This document shows, one piece after another, positions 55,059 to 61,772 of a stretch of DNA of 64,000 bases. Both the position numbers and the translations under genes were made by a program. The notes beneath the pieces were generated by a model. The model ran no database searches and was not told the DNA's origin. It saw only the letters and a list, made by a program, of their open reading frames with translations. This DNA comes from a phage, in the NCBI GenBank assembly GCA_025284135.1, contig GCA_025284135.1_3646.1. The stretch is one strand, 5' to 3'. The stretch's first letter is position 1, and each line of letters opens with the position of its first letter.

Positions 55059-56540
55059 TTACTTAGCGTACTCGATTAATTCCACAGTTTTCCCAAAGCT
55101 CGGGATATAATTTTTATTATACCCTTCGGTGAGAACCCACAAAGTATCGTACTTTTTCCACTTGTTGTCAACAGCCTTTTGTTCAAAGTTATGCTCAAAG
55201 TATAGGTCGGTCAGGACGATGACATCTTTTGCATTCGGTATGTTGGCATCCAAATACTCGAACACGCAAGCAGCTGTTGTGCCCCATGTTGAGTGGACCT
55301 CATAGTTGATCATCTCGTCTATGTTGCCGCGAGTATATACTTTAACCTCTCCGACTTCAGTTGACCAACAGAACATTGTAACCTTAAACTCTTTATACAG
55401 GTTGCACAATCCGGTGATTTCATTGAACATTTTCTTTAAAGTTCTTTGAGAGATCGAGCCAGAAACGTCTAAAGCCACCACAATATCTATAGTGTTTTCC
55501 GGATTACGACCCGGAACAATAACGTGTTGGTTCTTGTTTATAGCTCCAACTTTTCGCATTGTGCTGGTCAAAGACCCAGATCGGCGACCAGGTTTTCTGT
55601 AGGTCAGTTCGGCCTTTCGTTTAGACAACATGCGTTGCTTGATGATGTCTATATAATTGATTACAGGCTTACCTCTGTTCTTGACAAACTCACGAACCGC
55701 CTCAGGGCAACGACCTCCGGAAGCTTGCATTGCTGCCTCCAGCATGTCACCAGAGTCCTGCATGGCCTGATCTTTATCAGATTGGCTGATTACAGGTTGT
55801 GGCTGATCATACCCCATAGCCTTTCCAAGATCATCACTAGTGCCACCGTTCCCACTCATGTGATCATCGGTTTGTCGCTTATCACCTTGAGAGTTCTCAC
55901 CTTTACCGTTCTTACTTTTACCGTTATTTTGATCTCTTTGCTTATCAAGAACTGCATAAACGTTCTCAGCAATCCATCCATGAAACTTCATGTCGCAGTA
56001 GCAGCTGGCTAAGAAGCCAAAAGGCTTACCTTTTACGAACGTAGTGCTTTTCCCTTTTGGGAAGAAAACACAAGGAGGCTTGCTAAAGTCAACCACAAGG
56101 CCTGTGTTGATGACGTGATCACAAGCAATGTTGAACAGTTCCGGTTCAAAGCTTTTACCACGGACCAGGTGATCACAGATAATATGTCCCACCTCATGTG
56201 ACAGAAGAAAGGCCACCTCTTTCACAGATTTGGGGGAATAGAAAACCTCAGCCATCTCAAACTGCCCGTCAGTTAGAGAAGCCTTAAGAATAGCCTTGCG
56301 TTCATCAGCCAACCCCATAATGAACTCAGGACTGTAATAGATGCGTTTATGGTCGGTTGCCATGGTGGAGCACCATGTGTGGTTTTCTACGAACTGCAAC
56401 CCTGACAGTAGCGTGCCATAAAACGGCAGCTTTTCAAGAAGATACATACGTGCAGCTTGCAACATTCTCAGGGCATCATCTTTCTGTGAGGCAATGATTT
56501 CTGAACTTCTGCTATCCATTAAAACTCCAGAAGGGGCCAT
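55059..56540 (-). CDS. vWA-domain protein with N-terminal HExxH metallopeptidase-like domain
   Basis: HExxH in LLSHEVGHIICDHL; MIDAS motif D-x-S-G-S in VVALDVSGSIS; low-complexity acidic/Gly linker between domains. Confidence 0.7.
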   Translation of the reverse strand: MAPSGVLMDSRSSEIIASQKDDALRMLQAARMYLLEKLPFYGTLLSGLQFVENHTWCSTMATDHKRIYYSPEFIMGLADERKAILKASLTDGQFEMAEVFYSPKSVKEVAFLLSHEVGHIICDHLVRGKSFEPELFNIACDHVINTGLVVDFSKPPCVFFPKGKSTTFVKGKPFGFLASCYCDMKFHGWIAENVYAVLDKQRDQNNGKSKNGKGENSQGDKRQTDDHMSGNGGTSDDLGKAMGYDQPQPVISQSDKDQAMQDSGDMLEAAMQASGGRCPEAVREFVKNRGKPVINYIDIIKQRMLSKRKAELTYRKPGRRSGSLTSTMRKVGAINKNQHVIVPGRNPENTIDIVVALDVSGSISQRTLKKMFNEITGLCNLYKEFKVTMFCWSTEVGEVKVYTRGNIDEMINYEVHSTWGTTAACVFEYLDANIPNAKDVIVLTDLYFEHNFEQKAVDNKWKKYDTLWVLTEGYNKNYIPSFGKTVELIEYAK

Positions 56541-56552
56541 TGGCCCCTGTCA

Positions 56553-57530
56553 TTATTTAACGTGTTTGAAAATACCTGCCAACTCGGTCATTGTCATGCG
56601 GGTGGTCTTCATAAGATCTGTCATAGCTTTCTCCATAATTGGAGATACTACCATAAAGTTTCCTTTAGTGAAACCTTTATTCCAGTCGGTCACCAACAGT
56701 GGTTTAAGTCCAGCTCCGAGACGTTCACCAGTTAAAGCACAGCATTTGCGAATATACGAACTCTTAAATTGGCTGAACGACAGATCAACTTTCATACCTG
56801 CATCGTAGAACGTTTGACAATAGAAAGTGTAAGCCTTAGCAATCTCAACATCATCAGGCAGTGCAGGAACTTCTTCTGCAATACCCTCTTCGACCTCCTG
56901 AGGATCTTTTTCCTCTTCAGAGTTCTGTTCTTCAATTTCTTCTGTCACAGTCTCGTTTACGATGTCTGAAATGTGTTTGTTGGCTGCACGATCAGCCATG
57001 AAATTTTTAAAGTCCTGCATTGGTGACATATCTTCCTCCTCTTCGTCAAATAGTGCTAGTTTATCTTCTTCTGTCCCGTATTGCAAGATGAAATCTTCAA
57101 AAGTATAATCACCTTTCAATTTCTCCATACGCTCTTCGCTCAGGTGGAGCATCATCTGCTGGACAATTTTTCGATCAGTTTTGTCTTTTATCAAGATTGC
57201 AGTCTTTTTATCTACCAGACAGTCCTTCAGAGCGTTGCACCTCAATCCCACCACACAACAATTATCAATTGAGTAAGGACCTTCATCATCTATCCGCTCC
57301 AGAGATGGATAGAAAGGATTTCCCAGCCCGTTTTCATCTGTGTGCATGTCAAAAGGTATAAGGGTGTAATCGCACACTCCATCTCCTAAAAGTTTTTTAC
57401 CAAATAGGAGGTATTCTTCCCATGACAGGTTGAACTCTATATCCCGTTTCCGTGCATTATTCTGTTTGCGTCTATATTTTTTGAGCAGGCGCTCTAACTC
57501 TTCTGGTGTATAATATTTTTCAAGATTCAT
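56553..57530 (-). CDS. hypothetical protein with acidic linker and two degenerate HNH_3-like segments (start moved to ATG at 57530)
   Basis: Track start 57596 would overlap the promoter; segments SLERIDDEGPYSIDNCCVV and LVTDWNKGFTKGNFMVV; acidic stretch EEEEDMSPMQDF...EEIEEQNSEEEKDPQEVEE. Confidence 0.45.
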   Translation of the reverse strand: MNLEKYYTPEELERLLKKYRRKQNNARKRDIEFNLSWEEYLLFGKKLLGDGVCDYTLIPFDMHTDENGLGNPFYPSLERIDDEGPYSIDNCCVVGLRCNALKDCLVDKKTAILIKDKTDRKIVQQMMLHLSEERMEKLKGDYTFEDFILQYGTEEDKLALFDEEEEDMSPMQDFKNFMADRAANKHISDIVNETVTEEIEEQNSEEEKDPQEVEEGIAEEVPALPDDVEIAKAYTFYCQTFYDAGMKVDLSFSQFKSSYIRKCCALTGERLGAGLKPLLVTDWNKGFTKGNFMVVSPIMEKAMTDLMKTTRMTMTELAGIFKHVK

Positions 57531-57561
57531 GAGTTGTCTCTTGTGCTCTGTAGGTGAAGAA

Positions 57562-57590
57562 ATCTTATCAAGTGCCTCAACAGATGTCAA
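57562..57590 (-). promoter_or_regulatory. sigma70-like promoter (minus strand) TTGACA-N17-TAAGAT
   Basis: Reverse complement of about 57562-57590 reads TTGACATCTGTTGAGGCACTTGATAAGAT. Confidence 0.45.
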
Positions 57591-57603
57591 CCTCAAAAAC
57601 GTG

Positions 57604-57632
57604 TTGACTTTACCCTAAATCCACGATATAGT
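57604..57632 (+). promoter_or_regulatory. sigma70-like promoter TTGACT-N17-TATAGT
   Basis: Near-consensus hexamers with 17-nt spacer, back-to-back with the minus-strand promoter. Confidence 0.5.
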
Positions 57633-57672
57633 GCACCCATTCGAAAGAAAACGAACACAGGAGTACTTAATC

Positions 57673-58584
57673 ATGGCAAATCTTAACAGCTTTAGCACTC
57701 GGTGGAAACAAGATATCACAACCAATCTCTCAGCAGGCGATATCCTTTCTGCAATTTACGAGGCTTTGGATGATAAAGCTACTTCAAAAGCGGTTTGTAC
57801 CAACCCACTAATTCCTGTAGTGATGAAGGTTATTGAGCGTAGATTGGTATCTGGGTCTGATAAGTGGACATATTTAGATAATGAAGGACACACCTATTCC
57901 AATGGGTACGTCGATATAAAAGTAGAATACGCGGTATCATACCGCCGGAGCGGTTCTGTAACTTTCAACTTCTCTGGAGGTTTTCGATCTCTGGCTACCT
58001 CACCTTTTGTTTCCTCAGAGGAGAAGTATGAGCTTCCATTTCTTTGGATGATGGCTAACGCGACAGGAAAAACCCCCGTTAGCATCCGAGTAAAATACAA
58101 CTACAACGGATCTAGTAAGATCTATGCCGAGAGTGTCTCAGCAAGTTTTTATTTTGTGATGGGGGATGGAATCCTCAAACATATAAAGATGTGCGATATG
58201 CATGATGTTATAAATGAAGTGACTGATAAGAATGTTCTGGTGAAGGATCTCAACAATTTTTATACACCCGGAGACTATTACGTCAGCCGTCCACTGTGCA
58301 TCTTTAATGCCGCACACCCTCTAGGTGAGTATTTGATCGCCAATAGCGATATTGCCAATAACCGCTTCGAGGTAGCAAGAGTACAGAATGAGGTATTGAC
58401 ATCTTGCAAGAGCGGTGATAAGTTTACCGAAGAAGAGATGGGTGTTTTAGAAATGATGGGATATAAGTGTAGCCTTTGGGTAGATGAGGTGTTTAATGAT
58501 TGCATCTATGGACAGGATATTTACCCATTAAAGAAGTATACTGATTCCAGTTTAATATTTGACTATGATGAAGTCATGTGGTAG
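57673..58584 (+). CDS. hypothetical protein (304 aa; start moved to ATG 57673)
   Basis: Track GTG start 57631 lies inside the -10 element; ATG 57673 has AGGAG RBS at 9-nt spacing. Confidence 0.5.
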   Translation: MANLNSFSTRWKQDITTNLSAGDILSAIYEALDDKATSKAVCTNPLIPVVMKVIERRLVSGSDKWTYLDNEGHTYSNGYVDIKVEYAVSYRRSGSVTFNFSGGFRSLATSPFVSSEEKYELPFLWMMANATGKTPVSIRVKYNYNGSSKIYAESVSASFYFVMGDGILKHIKMCDMHDVINEVTDKNVLVKDLNNFYTPGDYYVSRPLCIFNAAHPLGEYLIANSDIANNRFEVARVQNEVLTSCKSGDKFTEEEMGVLEMMGYKCSLWVDEVFNDCIYGQDIYPLKKYTDSSLIFDYDEVMW

Positions 58585-58837
58585 TGTATATTATGTTGGT
58601 GAGAATGTTCAGGCAGATAGTGTGTGGAAATCCATTAAGTCCACCACCGATGATGCCTTTCTGAGCGGGTTATGCTTTCCCAGCCCAGGGGACACTCTCC
58701 CTTACCCTGGAGATTTTGTTGTCAACAAGATGGACGGTTATACCGTGTGCCTGATGGTTGAAAAAATCTTTTTAGACACTAGACACAATCACCGTCTTGT
58801 GTTAAAATTTCAAGAATGTAAAATGACAATTGCCTAA
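58559..58837 (+). CDS. hypothetical small protein
   Basis: ORF overlapping upstream gene by about 26 nt; start uncertain. Confidence 0.3.
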   Translation: MTMMKSCGSVYYVGENVQADSVWKSIKSTTDDAFLSGLCFPSPGDTLPYPGDFVVNKMDGYTVCLMVEKIFLDTRHNHRLVLKFQECKMTIA

Positions 58838-58850
58838 GGAGACCTTGCCG

Positions 58851-59207
58851 ATGTCTAAAGTTACTTATCGTGCAGCTATTTACTGCAATGAACACCCAAT
58901 CTATAATGATGGTCACTGCCTTTTTAAAGAAAATCAATTGGGCTGTATTGTCCTCCCTGATGAAGGTGAAGGTTATCTGATTGCGTTGACAGGGTTTGAA
59001 CCTGAAGCTCTGGAAGCCAATCTTGACTACCTGGTAGAAGAGGGTGCTGCAGACCTGGTTGCCAATGGCCTATCCGTAAGCCTTGATGAAGTGGAGCGCT
59101 TCATGGGCAATTACCGTGTAGTGCGTGAGTTTACTATCGAGGTGGAAACTCCAGAGTGGGGTAGCACTGAAACTAATGCCGAAGAAAAAGAAGAGGAGGT
59201 AGAATAA
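58851..59207 (+). CDS. small acidic protein (start moved to ATG 58851)
   Basis: AAGGAG RBS; C-terminus EEKEEEVE whose codons contain the RBS of the next gene. Confidence 0.4.
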   Translation: MSKVTYRAAIYCNEHPIYNDGHCLFKENQLGCIVLPDEGEGYLIALTGFEPEALEANLDYLVEEGAADLVANGLSVSLDEVERFMGNYRVVREFTIEVETPEWGSTETNAEEKEEEVE

Positions 59208-59464
59208 TGAAAGTGCAGATCTTGACTAATGCCGAGAAGATGTTTATTGAAGATACACCTTTTGAAGCTGGTGAGCTACAGTTCGTTTATTTTGTTGACT
59301 TAGATAAGGTGTTCCCTGCACTGAATCTGGGTCTGGATGAAGTTCCTCATAAGGTTTTGTGCCAAGTTGTTCGTGCCTTAGCGGCAGAGGGGGAGTTCCA
59401 CACCCTTCAAGATATCCAGACCTACGGGTATCTTGAACTACAACGAGAAGAAGAGGTGGACTGA
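59207..59464 (+). CDS. small acidic protein (85 aa)
   Basis: RBS GAGGAGG embedded in upstream coding sequence; C-terminus REEEVD. Confidence 0.45.
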   Translation: MKVQILTNAEKMFIEDTPFEAGELQFVYFVDLDKVFPALNLGLDEVPHKVLCQVVRALAAEGEFHTLQDIQTYGYLELQREEEVD

Positions 59465-59466
59465 TA

Positions 59467-59847
59467 ATGGCTCAGTGGAAGACAACAGTTGACCTTCATG
59501 ATCAGTGGTTAGGACGCATCACTGAAGACGGGAAGTTAGTTGAGTGGGACAATAAGCATGTTAGCGAGTTGGCAAGTATTGTGGCTGGCAAGTTACGATC
59601 CAAGTTCCCTGAACAACTGGATCCTGATAGTTCAAAGTTCGATCCTGAGTTGGAGGATGTTGTATACTACTTCGACACCGTGGATGACTACGATGCGTGG
59701 TTTGCAGCACGGGAGCTTTACCCACAAGGATCTGCTATGCGCCAGATGGAAGAAGATTATCCTCCGTGCGAGCAATTCAATAGTGCAATGACTTGCCTCT
59801 ACGATTGGGCAGATAAGAACCTTGTCTGGATTCGGACTGCATTTTAG
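59467..59847 (+). CDS. hypothetical acidic protein (126 aa)
   Basis: ORF; RBS within upstream EEEVD codons. Confidence 0.45.
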   Translation: MAQWKTTVDLHDQWLGRITEDGKLVEWDNKHVSELASIVAGKLRSKFPEQLDPDSSKFDPELEDVVYYFDTVDDYDAWFAARELYPQGSAMRQMEEDYPPCEQFNSAMTCLYDWADKNLVWIRTAF

Positions 59848-59891
59848 TGGGCAGGAATGGCGGCAAGGATGCTGCTTAAGGAGTAGTAGAG

Positions 59892-60161
59892 ATGTTATAC
59901 CAGCAATATGAACTTCGTGCAGAAAAAGAGTTAAATTTTGACAAAGATATTCACAGATATTATTATGGGAAAGTTAGAGGGCAAGCAAGAAAGTGTACTC
60001 CAACACTCTTTTATGCCAGCAGACGACTAGCGCCAGAAGAGGCAACAGCAGAAAGGGTTGCGTACAACTGGAGAGTCACGTATGATATTGACAGATCCGA
60101 TGTGATATCTGTTTTGGAAAACTTTGAAAACACTTACACACAAGTAGAGGACTTTTACTAA
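59892..60161 (+). CDS. hypothetical protein (89 aa)
   Basis: ORF with AAGGAG RBS. Confidence 0.45.
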   Translation: MLYQQYELRAEKELNFDKDIHRYYYGKVRGQARKCTPTLFYASRRLAPEEATAERVAYNWRVTYDIDRSDVISVLENFENTYTQVEDFY

Positions 60162-61345
60162 TGTCAAGAAACGTATTTGAAAGTGGTCAAATCACTGTCC
60201 GTGAGTTGCCAGCTATCATTCAGTTTGCCCAGCGTCATAACCGATCTGTCCTGATTTTAGGACCAATGGGCGTGGGAAAGAGCCGGGTGATGAAGCAGAT
60301 CGCAGACAATATGTTCGGTGAGCGAGATGACAACTTGGTTGACGTGCGGTTGTCAGATAAAGATCCTGCCGACTTATCTGGGCTACCTATCCCTGTAGAA
60401 GCGGATGGAACTACACGTACAGTGTTTGCAATTCCAGAATTTTGGCCTGCGGATCCTGACTGGAGCGGAATTATCTTTCTGGATGAGCTCACTCATGCAG
60501 ATAACTACCTGCAAAAGGTTGCAATGCAAATTATGCTCGACCACAAGTGCGGTACCTATGCATTCCCTAAAGGTTCTGTTTTTGTGGCTGCTGGTAACCG
60601 TTCTACAGATGGTGCGGTTCTTTCGGCGCTCGAAGCCCCTCTGGCTAACCGTTTTATCATTGTAGAAGTTACAAGCAATGCAGAGGTGTTTATTGAGGAC
60701 TACGCATTCCTTAATGGGGTGCATTCCTCTGTAATTGGATATCTGAAAAGAGTTCCATCAGCTATCGATAATTATGAGGCTATGGCTGAGATTAATTGTC
60801 CATCTTTTGCCACACCGCGATCTTGGGTTGCTGCATCTGATATCTTGCACGATTTTGACAGCGGCATTATTTCTGACGCTATGGCCCGTGTTCTTCTGCA
60901 AGGTGCTATTGGTCACACTGCAGCGGTAGAGATCTGGACTTACCACACCAAGAAACGCAACTTACCGGAAATCGGTCGGATTATGGCAGGAGGTTGCAAA
61001 GAATATGTAGGTCCTAAACAGCCAGACATCTTGTGGATTCTTGGATCTGAAGGTTGTATCGCTATTCGTAATATGATGGAAAATGCAAGTATCTCCGACG
61101 AAGATCTTGTTAGCTGTGTGGCAAACTTCCTCGATTTCCTTTGGGGAAACTTCAAGGATGAGAACCGAGATTTTGTATTCTCAGTCTTTATGGCGATGAT
61201 GAAACCTAATGCCTTAGGAAATGCCTTGCTTATCGGTAAAGGTCGTGACAAGATTGTTGCTCAGCTGATCAAAGCATACCCAAACCTGATGAAGATTGTA
61301 AAAGAGTTTGGTGAAGAGTTTAGCGCCATTTTGGCTAAAGCTTAA
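60161..61345 (+). CDS. MoxR-like AAA+ ATPase
   Basis: Walker A LILGPMGVGKS, Walker B IIFLDELTHA, sensor-1-like VFVAAGNRS, Arg in ALEAPLANRF. Confidence 0.7.
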   Translation: MSRNVFESGQITVRELPAIIQFAQRHNRSVLILGPMGVGKSRVMKQIADNMFGERDDNLVDVRLSDKDPADLSGLPIPVEADGTTRTVFAIPEFWPADPDWSGIIFLDELTHADNYLQKVAMQIMLDHKCGTYAFPKGSVFVAAGNRSTDGAVLSALEAPLANRFIIVEVTSNAEVFIEDYAFLNGVHSSVIGYLKRVPSAIDNYEAMAEINCPSFATPRSWVAASDILHDFDSGIISDAMARVLLQGAIGHTAAVEIWTYHTKKRNLPEIGRIMAGGCKEYVGPKQPDILWILGSEGCIAIRNMMENASISDEDLVSCVANFLDFLWGNFKDENRDFVFSVFMAMMKPNALGNALLIGKGRDKIVAQLIKAYPNLMKIVKEFGEEFSAILAKA

Positions 61346-61354
61346 GGAGGTTGT

Positions 61355-61735
61355 ATGGCTAAAGTAGGTAAGCGGGGAAACTACCTAGTGGTATTGACCG
61401 AGGAGCCCGAGAAGGAGTACGAATGCAGCTCCACTTGCGTGATCGATATCCGAGAAAAAGATGTAGATGAAATCTGGTTTGAAATATTGGACGCTTGCGA
61501 TAGCAGTGATTATTTCTTCATCTATGTCAACGATAAGGCTGGGTTCTTCCATGACGACGGAGAGTTGCCGTATGAAATCTATGAACTTGTAGAGGCTTGC
61601 CATCGTGGAGATGCGGAGTTGTTTGGCTTACGGCTGAAAAGCGGTAAATTCTTCTATCAAGATGAGTGCATGAATCTTCATAACTTTGTAGAGGGAACTT
61701 GCAACGATGGAGAGATTCTGGCACACTACGATTAA
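61355..61735 (+). CDS. hypothetical Cys-containing acidic protein (126 aa)
   Basis: ORF with AAGGAGG RBS; followed by terminator. Confidence 0.45.
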   Translation: MAKVGKRGNYLVVLTEEPEKEYECSSTCVIDIREKDVDEIWFEILDACDSSDYFFIYVNDKAGFFHDDGELPYEIYELVEACHRGDAELFGLRLKSGKFFYQDECMNLHNFVEGTCNDGEILAHYD

Positions 61736-61743
61736 TTTCTAAG

Positions 61744-61772
61744 ACCACCCCGCTTCGGCGGGGATTTTCTAT
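61744..61772 (+). terminator. rho-independent terminator (CGCTTCGGCG family)
   Basis: CCCCGC-TTCG-GCGGGG followed by ATTTTCTATTT. Confidence 0.6.

Follow-up and report, generated by a model that had tools for sequence, protein, structure and literature searches.

Introduction

Genes 24 and 25 of phage N4 are two of the 14 genes that form the core set in N4-like phages (Schitoviridae) and have no known function (PMC4193335; PMC2784036; PMC7650795). Their products, gp24 and gp25, have been described as middle transcripts (PMC4193335). A second pair, ASV44729.1 and ASV44728.2 of the jumbo phage Atu_ph07, supplied the exemplars for a described coupling of a MoxR ATPase with a vWA-metallopeptidase protein (Iyer et al. 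2021, Viruses 13:63; PMC7824862). Here we analyse a pair of this kind in a 64,000-nucleotide stretch of phage DNA (GenBank assembly GCA_025284135.1, contig GCA_025284135.1_3646.1), which we call the window. The open reading frame (ORF) 60161-61345 on the plus strand encodes a MoxR-class AAA+ ATPase, and ORF 55059-56540 on the minus strand encodes its presumptive partner, a protein with an HExxH motif and a vWA domain. Judged by nucleotide comparison, the window is an rV5-like E. coli myovirus of the genus Vequintavirus, subfamily Vequintavirinae, and the 6.3-kb stretch that holds both genes is 96-98.6% identical to more than 100 such phages.

How a MoxR ATPase works with a vWA protein has been described for NorQ/NorD from cryo-EM and mutagenesis. 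A single VWA protein rests on the hexamer of the MoxR ATPase and reaches with a finger into the central pore, and its MIDAS, a metal ion-dependent adhesion site, is needed to engage acidic residues of the client and not for binding the ATPase. ATP hydrolysis remodels a linker of the VWA protein and, via this linker, the client (PMC9976466; PMC13036017). In Table S3 of the 2013 rV5 genome paper, gene 4 appears as "MoxR - ATPase" and gene 12, with no link drawn between the two, as a hypothetical conserved gene with DUF2201_N. Several recent Vequintavirus GenBank records name the products "MoxR-like ATPase" and "putative metallopeptidase" or "VWA-like domain containing protein".

Results

In BLASTP comparisons the window ATPase matches N4 gp24 (E = 3e-28) and the partner matches N4 gp25 (2e-20). 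Both also match the Atu_ph07 pair over nearly their full length, ASV44729.1 at 1e-34 and ASV44728.2 at 4e-33, with the two accessions established by exact-sequence look-up. Hidden Markov models (HMMs) built from homologs of the window proteins recover gp24 at 1e-57 and gp25 at 5e-115, and the GenBank record of RaK2 carries genes annotated "gp24-like" and "gp25-like". When 50,697 phage records were searched with tblastn, the ATPase was found in 815 and the partner in 667. Counts by host genus (ATPase/partner) were 216/214 for Escherichia, 108/102 for Pseudomonas, 26/26 for Pectobacterium and 17/17 for Cronobacter. The matches include N4-like podoviruses, jumbo phages of the RaK2 and phAPEC6 types, Atu_ph07, PA5oct, the cyanophage S-TIM5, Thermus phiYS40 and Bacillus PBS1. 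Homologs with at least 95% identity occur in 118 and 119 records for the two proteins, respectively.

By homology, the pair in the window is the Vequintavirus version of the recognised and widespread phage N4 gp24/gp25 module, and is not a new pair. What is new here is the explicit assignment of the Vequintavirus genes to this family, together with the findings that adjacency of the genes is ancestral, that their divergent split is specific to one sub-clade in which both were retained, and that their context speaks for early or middle, non-virion expression. A propagated mis-annotation is noted as well. An earlier note, drawn from the letters of this DNA, had treated the two genes as a pair in spite of their divergent transcripts, which stands, and it had named their co-occurrence in relatives as a check, which the tblastn counts and the loci described below bear out strongly. 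It had missed the recognised family, the derived nature of the split and the separation of the genes elsewhere. Its two ORFs and every motif it quoted were recovered by translation, far beyond chance expectation (Table 1).

Assignment of the ATPase to the MoxR class required several lines of evidence. The protein matches PHROG 1297 ("ATPase") at 7e-110, and no Pfam AAA model reached its curated threshold: AAA_5 scored 16.9 bits against a cut-off of 22 and bpMoxR 14.8 bits against 27, so that direct membership of AAA_3 or AAA_5 was not obtained. Because of these sub-threshold scores, the MoxR label needed independent support, which came from homologs, a profile search and the predicted fold. 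Homologs about 35% identical to the ATPase (E ~1e-44, ~85% coverage) bear AAA_3, AAA_5 and bpMoxR. One of them (P0066), when rescanned, passes both the AAA_3 cut-off, at 31.7 bits, and the AAA_5 cut-off. Furthermore, the ATPase of the bacterium Sulfurivermis, which is 31% identical to that of the window (E = 2e-36), passes AAA_5 at 43.9 bits. A profile of 28 ATPase sequences run against PDB sequences found the AAA modules of Midasin as its best match (2e-11), from Walker A to past sensor 1.

The AlphaFold2 model of the ATPase (mean predicted local distance difference test score, pLDDT, 83) agrees with this assignment. In a Foldseek search against the PDB, ranks 1-14 were taken by NorQ, alone and in complex with the VWA domain of NorD, and by CbbQ2, a Rubisco activase of the MoxR class (E 1.6e-8 to 2.7e-7; template modelling score 0.59-0.64, normalised to the target). 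The hairpin predicted for residues 75-90 occupies the position of the helix-2 insert of MoxR, CbbQ and NorQ in the modelled secondary structure, and the helix-2 insert of CbbQ2 comprises residues 78-93 (PMC9976466). A second short hairpin, at about residues 129-135, precedes the sensor-1 strand, and the predicted structure therefore has both the helix-2 insert and the pre-sensor-1 beta-hairpin. R164 and R220 are invariant or near-invariant in the sets of 28 and 82 homologs, and their position and conservation suggest that they may serve as arginine finger and sensor 2. Walker A, Walker B and sensor 1 are likewise conserved throughout the family. At the C-terminus, ~120 residues are modelled as an additional helical region, beyond the part that aligns with NorQ.

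Homologs, profile search and model all agree that the fold and class of the ATPase are MoxR, as the earlier note had it. The low Pfam scores are a sensitivity failure for a divergent member and not a sign of another family. Of the HMM searches that the note had suggested, the one with AAA_5 fell short of its threshold, and those for DUF2201 returned both domains above theirs. Sequence membership of the CobS/CobT or BchI/BchD chelatase families was not found. In the sequence scans (Pfam, NCBIfam, PADLOC and PDB) the ATPase gave only sub-threshold matches, to ClpB/ClpC, RFC and shikimate kinase, which we discarded as non-specific P-loop similarity.

The partner consists of two Pfam domains, DUF2201_N (PF13203; E = 2.7e-28, 99.8 bits, cut-off 23.2) followed by the VWA-like DUF2201 (PF09967; E = 3.6e-11, 43.7 bits, cut-off 26.4), and all 61 database homologs have both. 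Conservation was assessed in 25-29 diverse homologs and then in 82 ORFs from fetched loci. The three histidines of the putative zinc site (H115, H119, H124) never vary, and 81 of the 82 family members have E116. A139-x-D141-x-x-x-N145 is invariant or near-invariant too. The C-terminal domain has the vWA fold with a complete MIDAS: DxSxS is found in 82/82 members, GT in 81/82 and [TS]D in 81/82. Immediately N-terminal to this domain, at about residues 314-321, runs a conserved Y-x-R-P-x-R-R linker. Fold matches of this domain in the AlphaFold2 model (pLDDT 83) are vWA structures including NorD, BchD and the MIDAS domain of Midasin. The earlier note's reading of a vWA/HExxH partner holds: it is a DUF2201-type vWA protein whose zincin motif and MIDAS are intact.

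By GC skew and ORF orientation the window falls into three blocks. A long plus-strand block reaches up to ~50.8 kb, with ORF sizes that match the tabulated structural and packaging genes of rV5. It is followed by a minus-strand arm that runs leftward from ~57.6 kb down to ~51 kb, and by a plus-strand arm from ~57.6 kb to the window end. The partner gene lies on the leftward arm and the ATPase gene on the rightward arm, 3620 bp apart on opposite strands, in line with the 3.6 kb given in the earlier note. Between the arms, two sigma70-like promoter matches face outward with their -35 hexamers 14 bp apart, which makes the back-to-back promoter region plausible on consensus grounds. For rV5, bidirectional promoters have been reported at the corresponding place, where its genes 10 and 11 diverge (PMC3606486). 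Since both arms would start from one promoter region, co-expression of the two genes is likely.

The best sigma70-like match of the region lies ~195 bp upstream of the ATPase start, and the ECML-10 record annotates a sigma70-type promoter at the equivalent site. Together with the terminator-like hairpin at 61748-61763, this match suggests that the ATPase may also have a separate short transcript nested in the rightward unit. The late-promoter motif of rV5, which is T4-late-like (TGGTAAAATA, at most one mismatch), occurs 18 times in the window against 5.6 expected, and no shuffle reached 18. Of these matches, 16 are plus-strand ones within the structural block, between 4758 and 48906 (~4.7-48.9 kb), and none of the 18 precedes the ATPase gene. 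Neither gp4 nor gp12, the rV5 counterparts of the ATPase and the partner, is among the virion proteins detected by mass spectrometry (MS) in the rV5 table. From gene position, promoter type and virion proteomics we infer that the module is expressed early or mid infection and is not part of the virion.

Table 1. Positions of the genes, motifs and signals discussed in the text, numbered from the first nucleotide of the window.
Feature	Position	Strand	Remark
MoxR-class AAA+ ATPase, 394 amino acids	60161..61345	+	Equals rV5 gp4; homolog of N4 gp24
Walker A, GPMGVGKS	60260..60283	+	Checked by translation; G37, G39, K40, S41 invariant in 28 homologs
Predicted beta-hairpin, residues 75-90	60383..60430	+	AlphaFold2 model; between beta2 and the Walker B strand
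Walker B, FLDELTHA	60476..60499	+	Checked by translation; D108, E109 invariant
Sensor-1 strand, AAGN	60587..60598	+	Checked by translation
Conserved R164 and R220	60650-60652; 60818-60820	+	3' of sensor 1
DUF2201_N putative zincin and DUF2201 vWA protein	55059..56540	-	Equals rV5 gp12(+13); homolog of N4 gp25
HEVGHIICDH, HExxHxxxxH putative zinc site	56169..56198	-	Checked by translation
MIDAS DxSxS (DVSGS)	55455..55469	-	Checked by translation; D358, S360, S362
Further MIDAS residues, G420-T421 and T444-D445	55278-55283; 55206-55211	-	
Hairpin AGGGGCC-AAT-GGCCCCT	56532-56548	-	Between the stop of the Srd-like gene and the partner gene
Leftward arm, gene 1	56553-57596	-	Equals rV5 gp11; annotated Srd-like anti-sigma factor
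Divergent intergenic region	57562..57632	.	Back-to-back sigma70-like promoters; consensus matches only
Minus promoter, TTGACA-17-TAAGAT	57590-57562	-	Consensus match
Plus promoter, TTGACT-17-TATAGT	57604-57632	+	Consensus match
Rightward arm, gene 1	57631-58584	+	PHROG 12338 (function unknown)
Best regional sigma70-like match, TTGACA-17-TATTAT, 11/12	59938..59966	+	Inside ORF 59892-60161
Terminator-like GC hairpin followed by T-run	61748..61763	+	3' of the ORF that follows the ATPase gene

We sought the usual arrangement of the two genes in 80 IMG/VR loci fetched with the ATPase profile, searching their six-frame ORFs with the HMMs of both families. The partner lies immediately downstream of the ATPase gene on the same strand in 66 loci, with gaps of ~60-560 bp. 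In 11 the contig ends before a partner could appear, in two (L025 and L048) other ORFs follow directly, and in one, the sole Vequintavirus-like contig of the set, the genes are divergent. Counted over the 68 informative loci, the adjacent order was seen in 66. In L025 and L048 the ORF directly after the ATPase gene is not a DUF2201 ORF, and these contigs of ~4 kb are indistinguishable from the inserted-gene arrangement of PA5oct and pVa5 described below. Single-protein queries gave only 4 and 2 loci, and distant isolates were sampled instead of a reciprocal, vWA-based locus search. An operon in which the ATPase gene is followed by the vWA gene is present in N4 and its relatives, Atu_ph07, RaK2, PBS1, S-TIM5 and phiYS40. 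The same operon is also chromosomal, in Sulfurivermis fontis (L089, 4839-9445), where a thioredoxin gene precedes it, an unannotated gene of 370 amino acids and then a ferrochelatase gene follow it, and Lon is nearby. These neighbours are a possible lead to the class of client served by the bacterial counterparts.

Within the Vequintavirinae, Certrevirus PBES 02 and the unclassified LTH01 have the two genes adjacent on the rightward arm. In Mydovirus Ro1, Seunavirus 4MG and Vequintavirus the vWA gene stands on the leftward arm, after the Srd-like gene. The proteins of PBES 02 and LTH01 are 34-38% identical to those of the window, and those of Ro1 and 4MG ~50%. For ATPase and vWA protein separately, the values are 52/49% and 50/50% in the split genera and 37/38% and 34/34% in the relatives with adjacent genes. 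Because Certrevirus and LTH01, as well as the distant phages, keep the adjacent order, adjacency is ancestral and the split is a derived rearrangement of one sub-clade formed by Vequintavirus, Seunavirus and Mydovirus. A single inversion is ruled out as its origin because the ATPase gene lies between the promoter region and the former position of the vWA gene. As to a remnant at the excision site, window positions 61355-61735 showed no homology to the gene after the vWA gene in PBES 02 or LTH01.

The genes have also been separated elsewhere. A homing endonuclease stands between them in PA5oct, where the distance is 2.9 kb, and in the N4-like Vibrio phage pVa5 the two genes share a strand but are separated by 6.4 kb. 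Gene order is the usual arrangement of this family and not a definition of homology. Across 56 non-redundant loci the pairwise identities of the two proteins are closely correlated (Mantel r = 0.97), and none of 2000 permutations gave so high a value.

The start of the partner gene is probably the second ATG, at 56519 (MDSRSSE..., 486 amino acids), and not that at 56540, because a GGAG Shine-Dalgarno sequence, the N-termini of homologs and a cluster representative of 486 amino acids agree on it. The first ATG, at 56540, lies in the loop of a 7-bp GC-rich hairpin (Table 1). This hairpin, placed between the Srd-like gene and the partner gene, could act as an attenuator or in translational control, or could merely mark the wrong start.

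In the rV5 record DQ832317 the partner gene is cut into gp12 (441 amino acids) and an overlapping gp13 (81 amino acids), and in the ECML-10 record it is unannotated altogether (L001, 4001-5494); in the window the ORF is continuous. The protein matches PHROG 1314 at 6e-123, and the label of that group, "HNH endonuclease", is misleading; it has spread to many GenBank and RefSeq entries, those for Atu_ph07, PA5oct, Ro1, 4MG, PBES 02 and PBS1 among them. No HNH domain was detected in the DUF2201 vWA/zincin family proteins examined, and the family placement corrects this widespread mis-annotation.

Discussion

We consider it probable that the two genes form a conserved module of the gp24/gp25 type, in which a MoxR-class ATPase has a dedicated vWA co-factor with a zincin-like domain, is expressed early or mid infection and likely acts on a non-structural client. 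Every sequence element that the NorQ/NorD model calls for is there in the phage pair: a helix-2 insert in an ATPase that looks active, a complete MIDAS and, ahead of the vWA domain, a conserved basic linker. To these the pair adds a near-invariant HExxHxxxxH domain. On the pattern of NorQ/NorD and CbbQ/CbbO, an ATPase hexamer would dock one copy of the vWA protein, whose MIDAS metal site would capture an acidic residue on a client protein. ATP hydrolysis, relayed through the vWA protein, would then remodel the client, and the zincin domain might cleave the client or a partner. We propose an ATP-driven remodel-and-clip device, of which the interaction, the stoichiometry and the proteolysis are all putative. 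As the module appears to be made early or in the middle of infection and to be absent from the virion, a host protein or a non-structural protein of the phage would be a likelier client than a protein of the capsid or tail. More specifically, the pair may be a remodel-and-cleave machine that acts early on a host protein or on a phage enzyme of replication or nucleotide metabolism, and not a chaperone of virion assembly. We advance this more specific form tentatively, as one possibility that falls short of being probable.

Several points weigh against our main reading of the module. The searchable literature (DUF2201; N4 gp24/gp25; MoxR in rV5 and Schitoviridae) contains no experiment on any member of the family, and a paper on "proteomics" of an O177 phage is in silico only. 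The N-terminal domain of the partner has no solved structural relative among the fold matches listed, its profile matches are weak ones to the HExxH helices of M48 and minigluzincin proteins (E = 0.03-0.07), and both its zincin nature and its peptidase activity are putative. In the Atu_ph07 protein, the motif reads HQILH and the catalytic glutamate is lost, the sole such case among the 82 members. The ATPase of PA5oct was tagged by electrospray ionisation tandem mass spectrometry (ESI-MS/MS) in a preparation of phage particles, which also held enzymes that its authors call virion-unrelated. The promoters and late motifs used to argue for timing are consensus matches. Finally, the co-divergence of the two proteins is expected for any vertically inherited gene pair. 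Since genes in one genome share its history, it shows co-retention and is no proof of interaction.

The Atu_ph07 variant deserves a separate remark. The HQILH protein (L002, 5208-6497) is the exemplar used in the literature for the metallopeptidase-vWA partner, and this natural change of glutamate to glutamine hints that zincin catalysis is perhaps dispensable in some phages.

As an alternative, the pair could be a maturation or activation factor for a metalloenzyme or an enzyme of nucleotide metabolism, of the phage or of the host, in the classic manner of NorQD, CbbQO and CoxDE, which insert a cofactor or free an enzyme from an inhibited state. The closest structural relatives of the ATPase, NorQ and CbbQ, point in this direction, as do many neighbours of the pair: thymidylate synthase in N4, RaK2 and pVa5, joined in N4 by dCTP deaminase, ThyX in S-TIM5, DNA polymerase and glutaredoxin in Atu_ph07, and, in Ro1 and 4MG, thymidylate kinase along with an HD hydrolase. 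The bacterial operon, too, sits between a thioredoxin gene and, one gene further, a ferrochelatase gene. However, this neighbourhood evidence is anecdotal, with no statistical test behind it, and no candidate client gene is common to all carriers in the neighbourhoods examined. Furthermore, the insertase-type partners NorD and CbbO are without a peptidase domain, whereas the HExxH motif is near-invariant here. We regard maturation of an enzyme as an unlikely account of the module.

The pair could also be an effector of host take-over or anti-defence that acts early, with the MIDAS capturing a host protein and the ATPase and zincin inactivating it by unfolding or cleavage. The early-type sigma70-like promoters would suit such a role, and where the pair is split, the leftward early unit has the Srd-like anti-sigma gene first and the vWA gene next. 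Bacterial conflict systems, moreover, use MoxR-vWA couples (PMC7159879). Yet the module is conserved in phages of E. coli, Pseudomonas, Vibrio, Roseobacter, Synechococcus, Thermus and Bacillus and in a chromosomal operon, and this breadth of hosts fits a conserved client of housekeeping type better than a fast-evolving defence target. No third component of a conflict system (VMAP or iSTAND) adjoins the pair. PADLOC, with no match to the vWA protein and none beyond P-loop noise to the ATPase, gave nothing in support of a defence or anti-defence assignment, and an assignment by that route was rejected. An effector of this kind seems doubtful to us.

The only published functional proposal, made for the Atu_ph07 pair, is virion assembly, in which the couple would act as a chaperone in building head or tail parts while the zincin, as a maturation protease, processes structural proteins. 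A MoxR-vWA pair of the archaeal two-tailed virus ATV has been reported in tail assembly (PMC7824862). In S-TIM5, Hsp20 and genes with a virion-structural annotation flank the pair, RaK2 has a head completion gene 5 kb upstream of it, and the PA5oct mass spectrometry tag could be read in the same way. Against this, both window genes lie outside the late structural block and without a late-promoter-like motif, their rV5 counterparts are missing from the MS-detected virion proteins, and the particle set of PA5oct includes virion-unrelated enzymes. The N4 pair is a pair of middle genes amid genes of nucleotide metabolism, and the module is common to podoviruses, myoviruses and jumbo phages with very different virions. 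The early-type promoters, the lack of the late motif and the absence from the rV5 virion proteome fit poorly with the published proposal. Taken with the neighbours in other phages, they speak weakly against a client that is structural only, since a chaperone does not have to enter the particle, and for the same reason the proposal is weakened and no more than that. As an explanation of the window pair we find virion assembly improbable.

That the two Vequintavirus genes became independent in function after the split, or that one is decaying, as their different transcription units and 3.6-kb separation might suggest, is highly implausible given that the catalytic and binding residues are all intact in both, that their records at 95% identity or more are near-equal in number, that their identities to the window track each other across the split genera, and that the arms share one promoter region.

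A gp24/gp25-type module that remodels a non-structural client can be compared with several named systems. The closest is N4 gp24/gp25 itself: both proteins are homologous, with the same domains including HExxHxxxxH and MIDAS, and both pairs are middle or early and non-structural. They differ in that the N4 genes are adjacent and co-directional, whereas those of the window are separated and divergent, and in that the Vequintavirus ATPase is longer, as is the vWA protein, which has insertions in its N-terminal domain. The Atu_ph07 pair has the same architecture and the same inferred chaperone/co-chaperone logic, but its genes are adjacent and its HQILH is without the catalytic glutamate.

NorQ/NorD and CbbQ/CbbO are the best structural matches of the ATPase, and the NorD VWA domain is among the matches of the partner. 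Identity is only 17-24%, NorD and CbbO are without a zincin domain, and the phage ATPase has its additional C-terminal helical region in comparison with NorQ. The earlier note had cited RavA-ViaA as its example. The general class is right, since this too is a MoxR ATPase with a vWA partner encoded alongside, but NorQ/NorD and CbbQ/CbbO are closer by Foldseek. Neither the 50 best fold matches nor the matches by sequence and profile include RavA, and the partner resembles ViaA in the vWA fold only; ViaA is not known to have an HExxH domain.

The ternary MoxR-vWA conflict systems share the MoxR-vWA couple, and there a peptidase is occasionally fused to the vWA component (Kaur et al. 2020). In contrast to them, the ORFs neighbouring our pair contain no VMAP, iSTAND, FtsH or beta-propeller domain, the bpMoxR score is sub-threshold, and the pair belongs to the core gene set of lytic phages and not to a bacterial defence island. 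Midasin (Rea1) provided the best PDB profile match of the ATPase, and its MIDAS is among the fold matches of the partner. However, Midasin is a giant polypeptide of six fused AAA modules with a C-terminal MIDAS that functions in ribosome biogenesis, and the similarity is at the level of the clade only.

The module is among the few genes common to N4-like podoviruses, rV5-like myoviruses and several groups of jumbo phages, and has bacterial counterparts too. More than 800 phage genomes carry the module, among them all Schitoviridae, the Vequintavirinae and many jumbo phages. If the pair does remodel and cleave a client, it would represent an infection function that is widespread and has so far gone uncharacterised. 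The split would then be a natural system in which ATPase and adaptor are separately transcribed and can be separately manipulated. The split shows that co-transcription in one operon is dispensable. The window does not offer a new kind of system; its practical use lies in showing the way to a tractable E. coli phage in which the client can be sought, and it is this client of the family, rather than the split, that merits further work.

Genome setting and database records

The first gene of the leftward arm, 56553-57596, has an acidic, low-complexity middle region and no Pfam match. Its residues ~31-143 also match PHROGs labelled endonuclease VII or HNH endonuclease. The Srd-like gene occurs in the split lineages (Ro1 and 4MG) and did not turn up in those parts of PBES 02 and LTH01 that were fetched. 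The first gene of the rightward arm is named "putative alpha 1-3 fucosyltransferase" in many records and has no Pfam or NCBIfam match. Its start is likely the ATG at 57673 rather than the GTG at 57631. Lastly, 16 records named "Campylobacter phage" (for example MG065654 and MG065666) are ~96% identical to window positions 55059-61345, which suggests mislabelled hosts or contaminating phage in the preparations.

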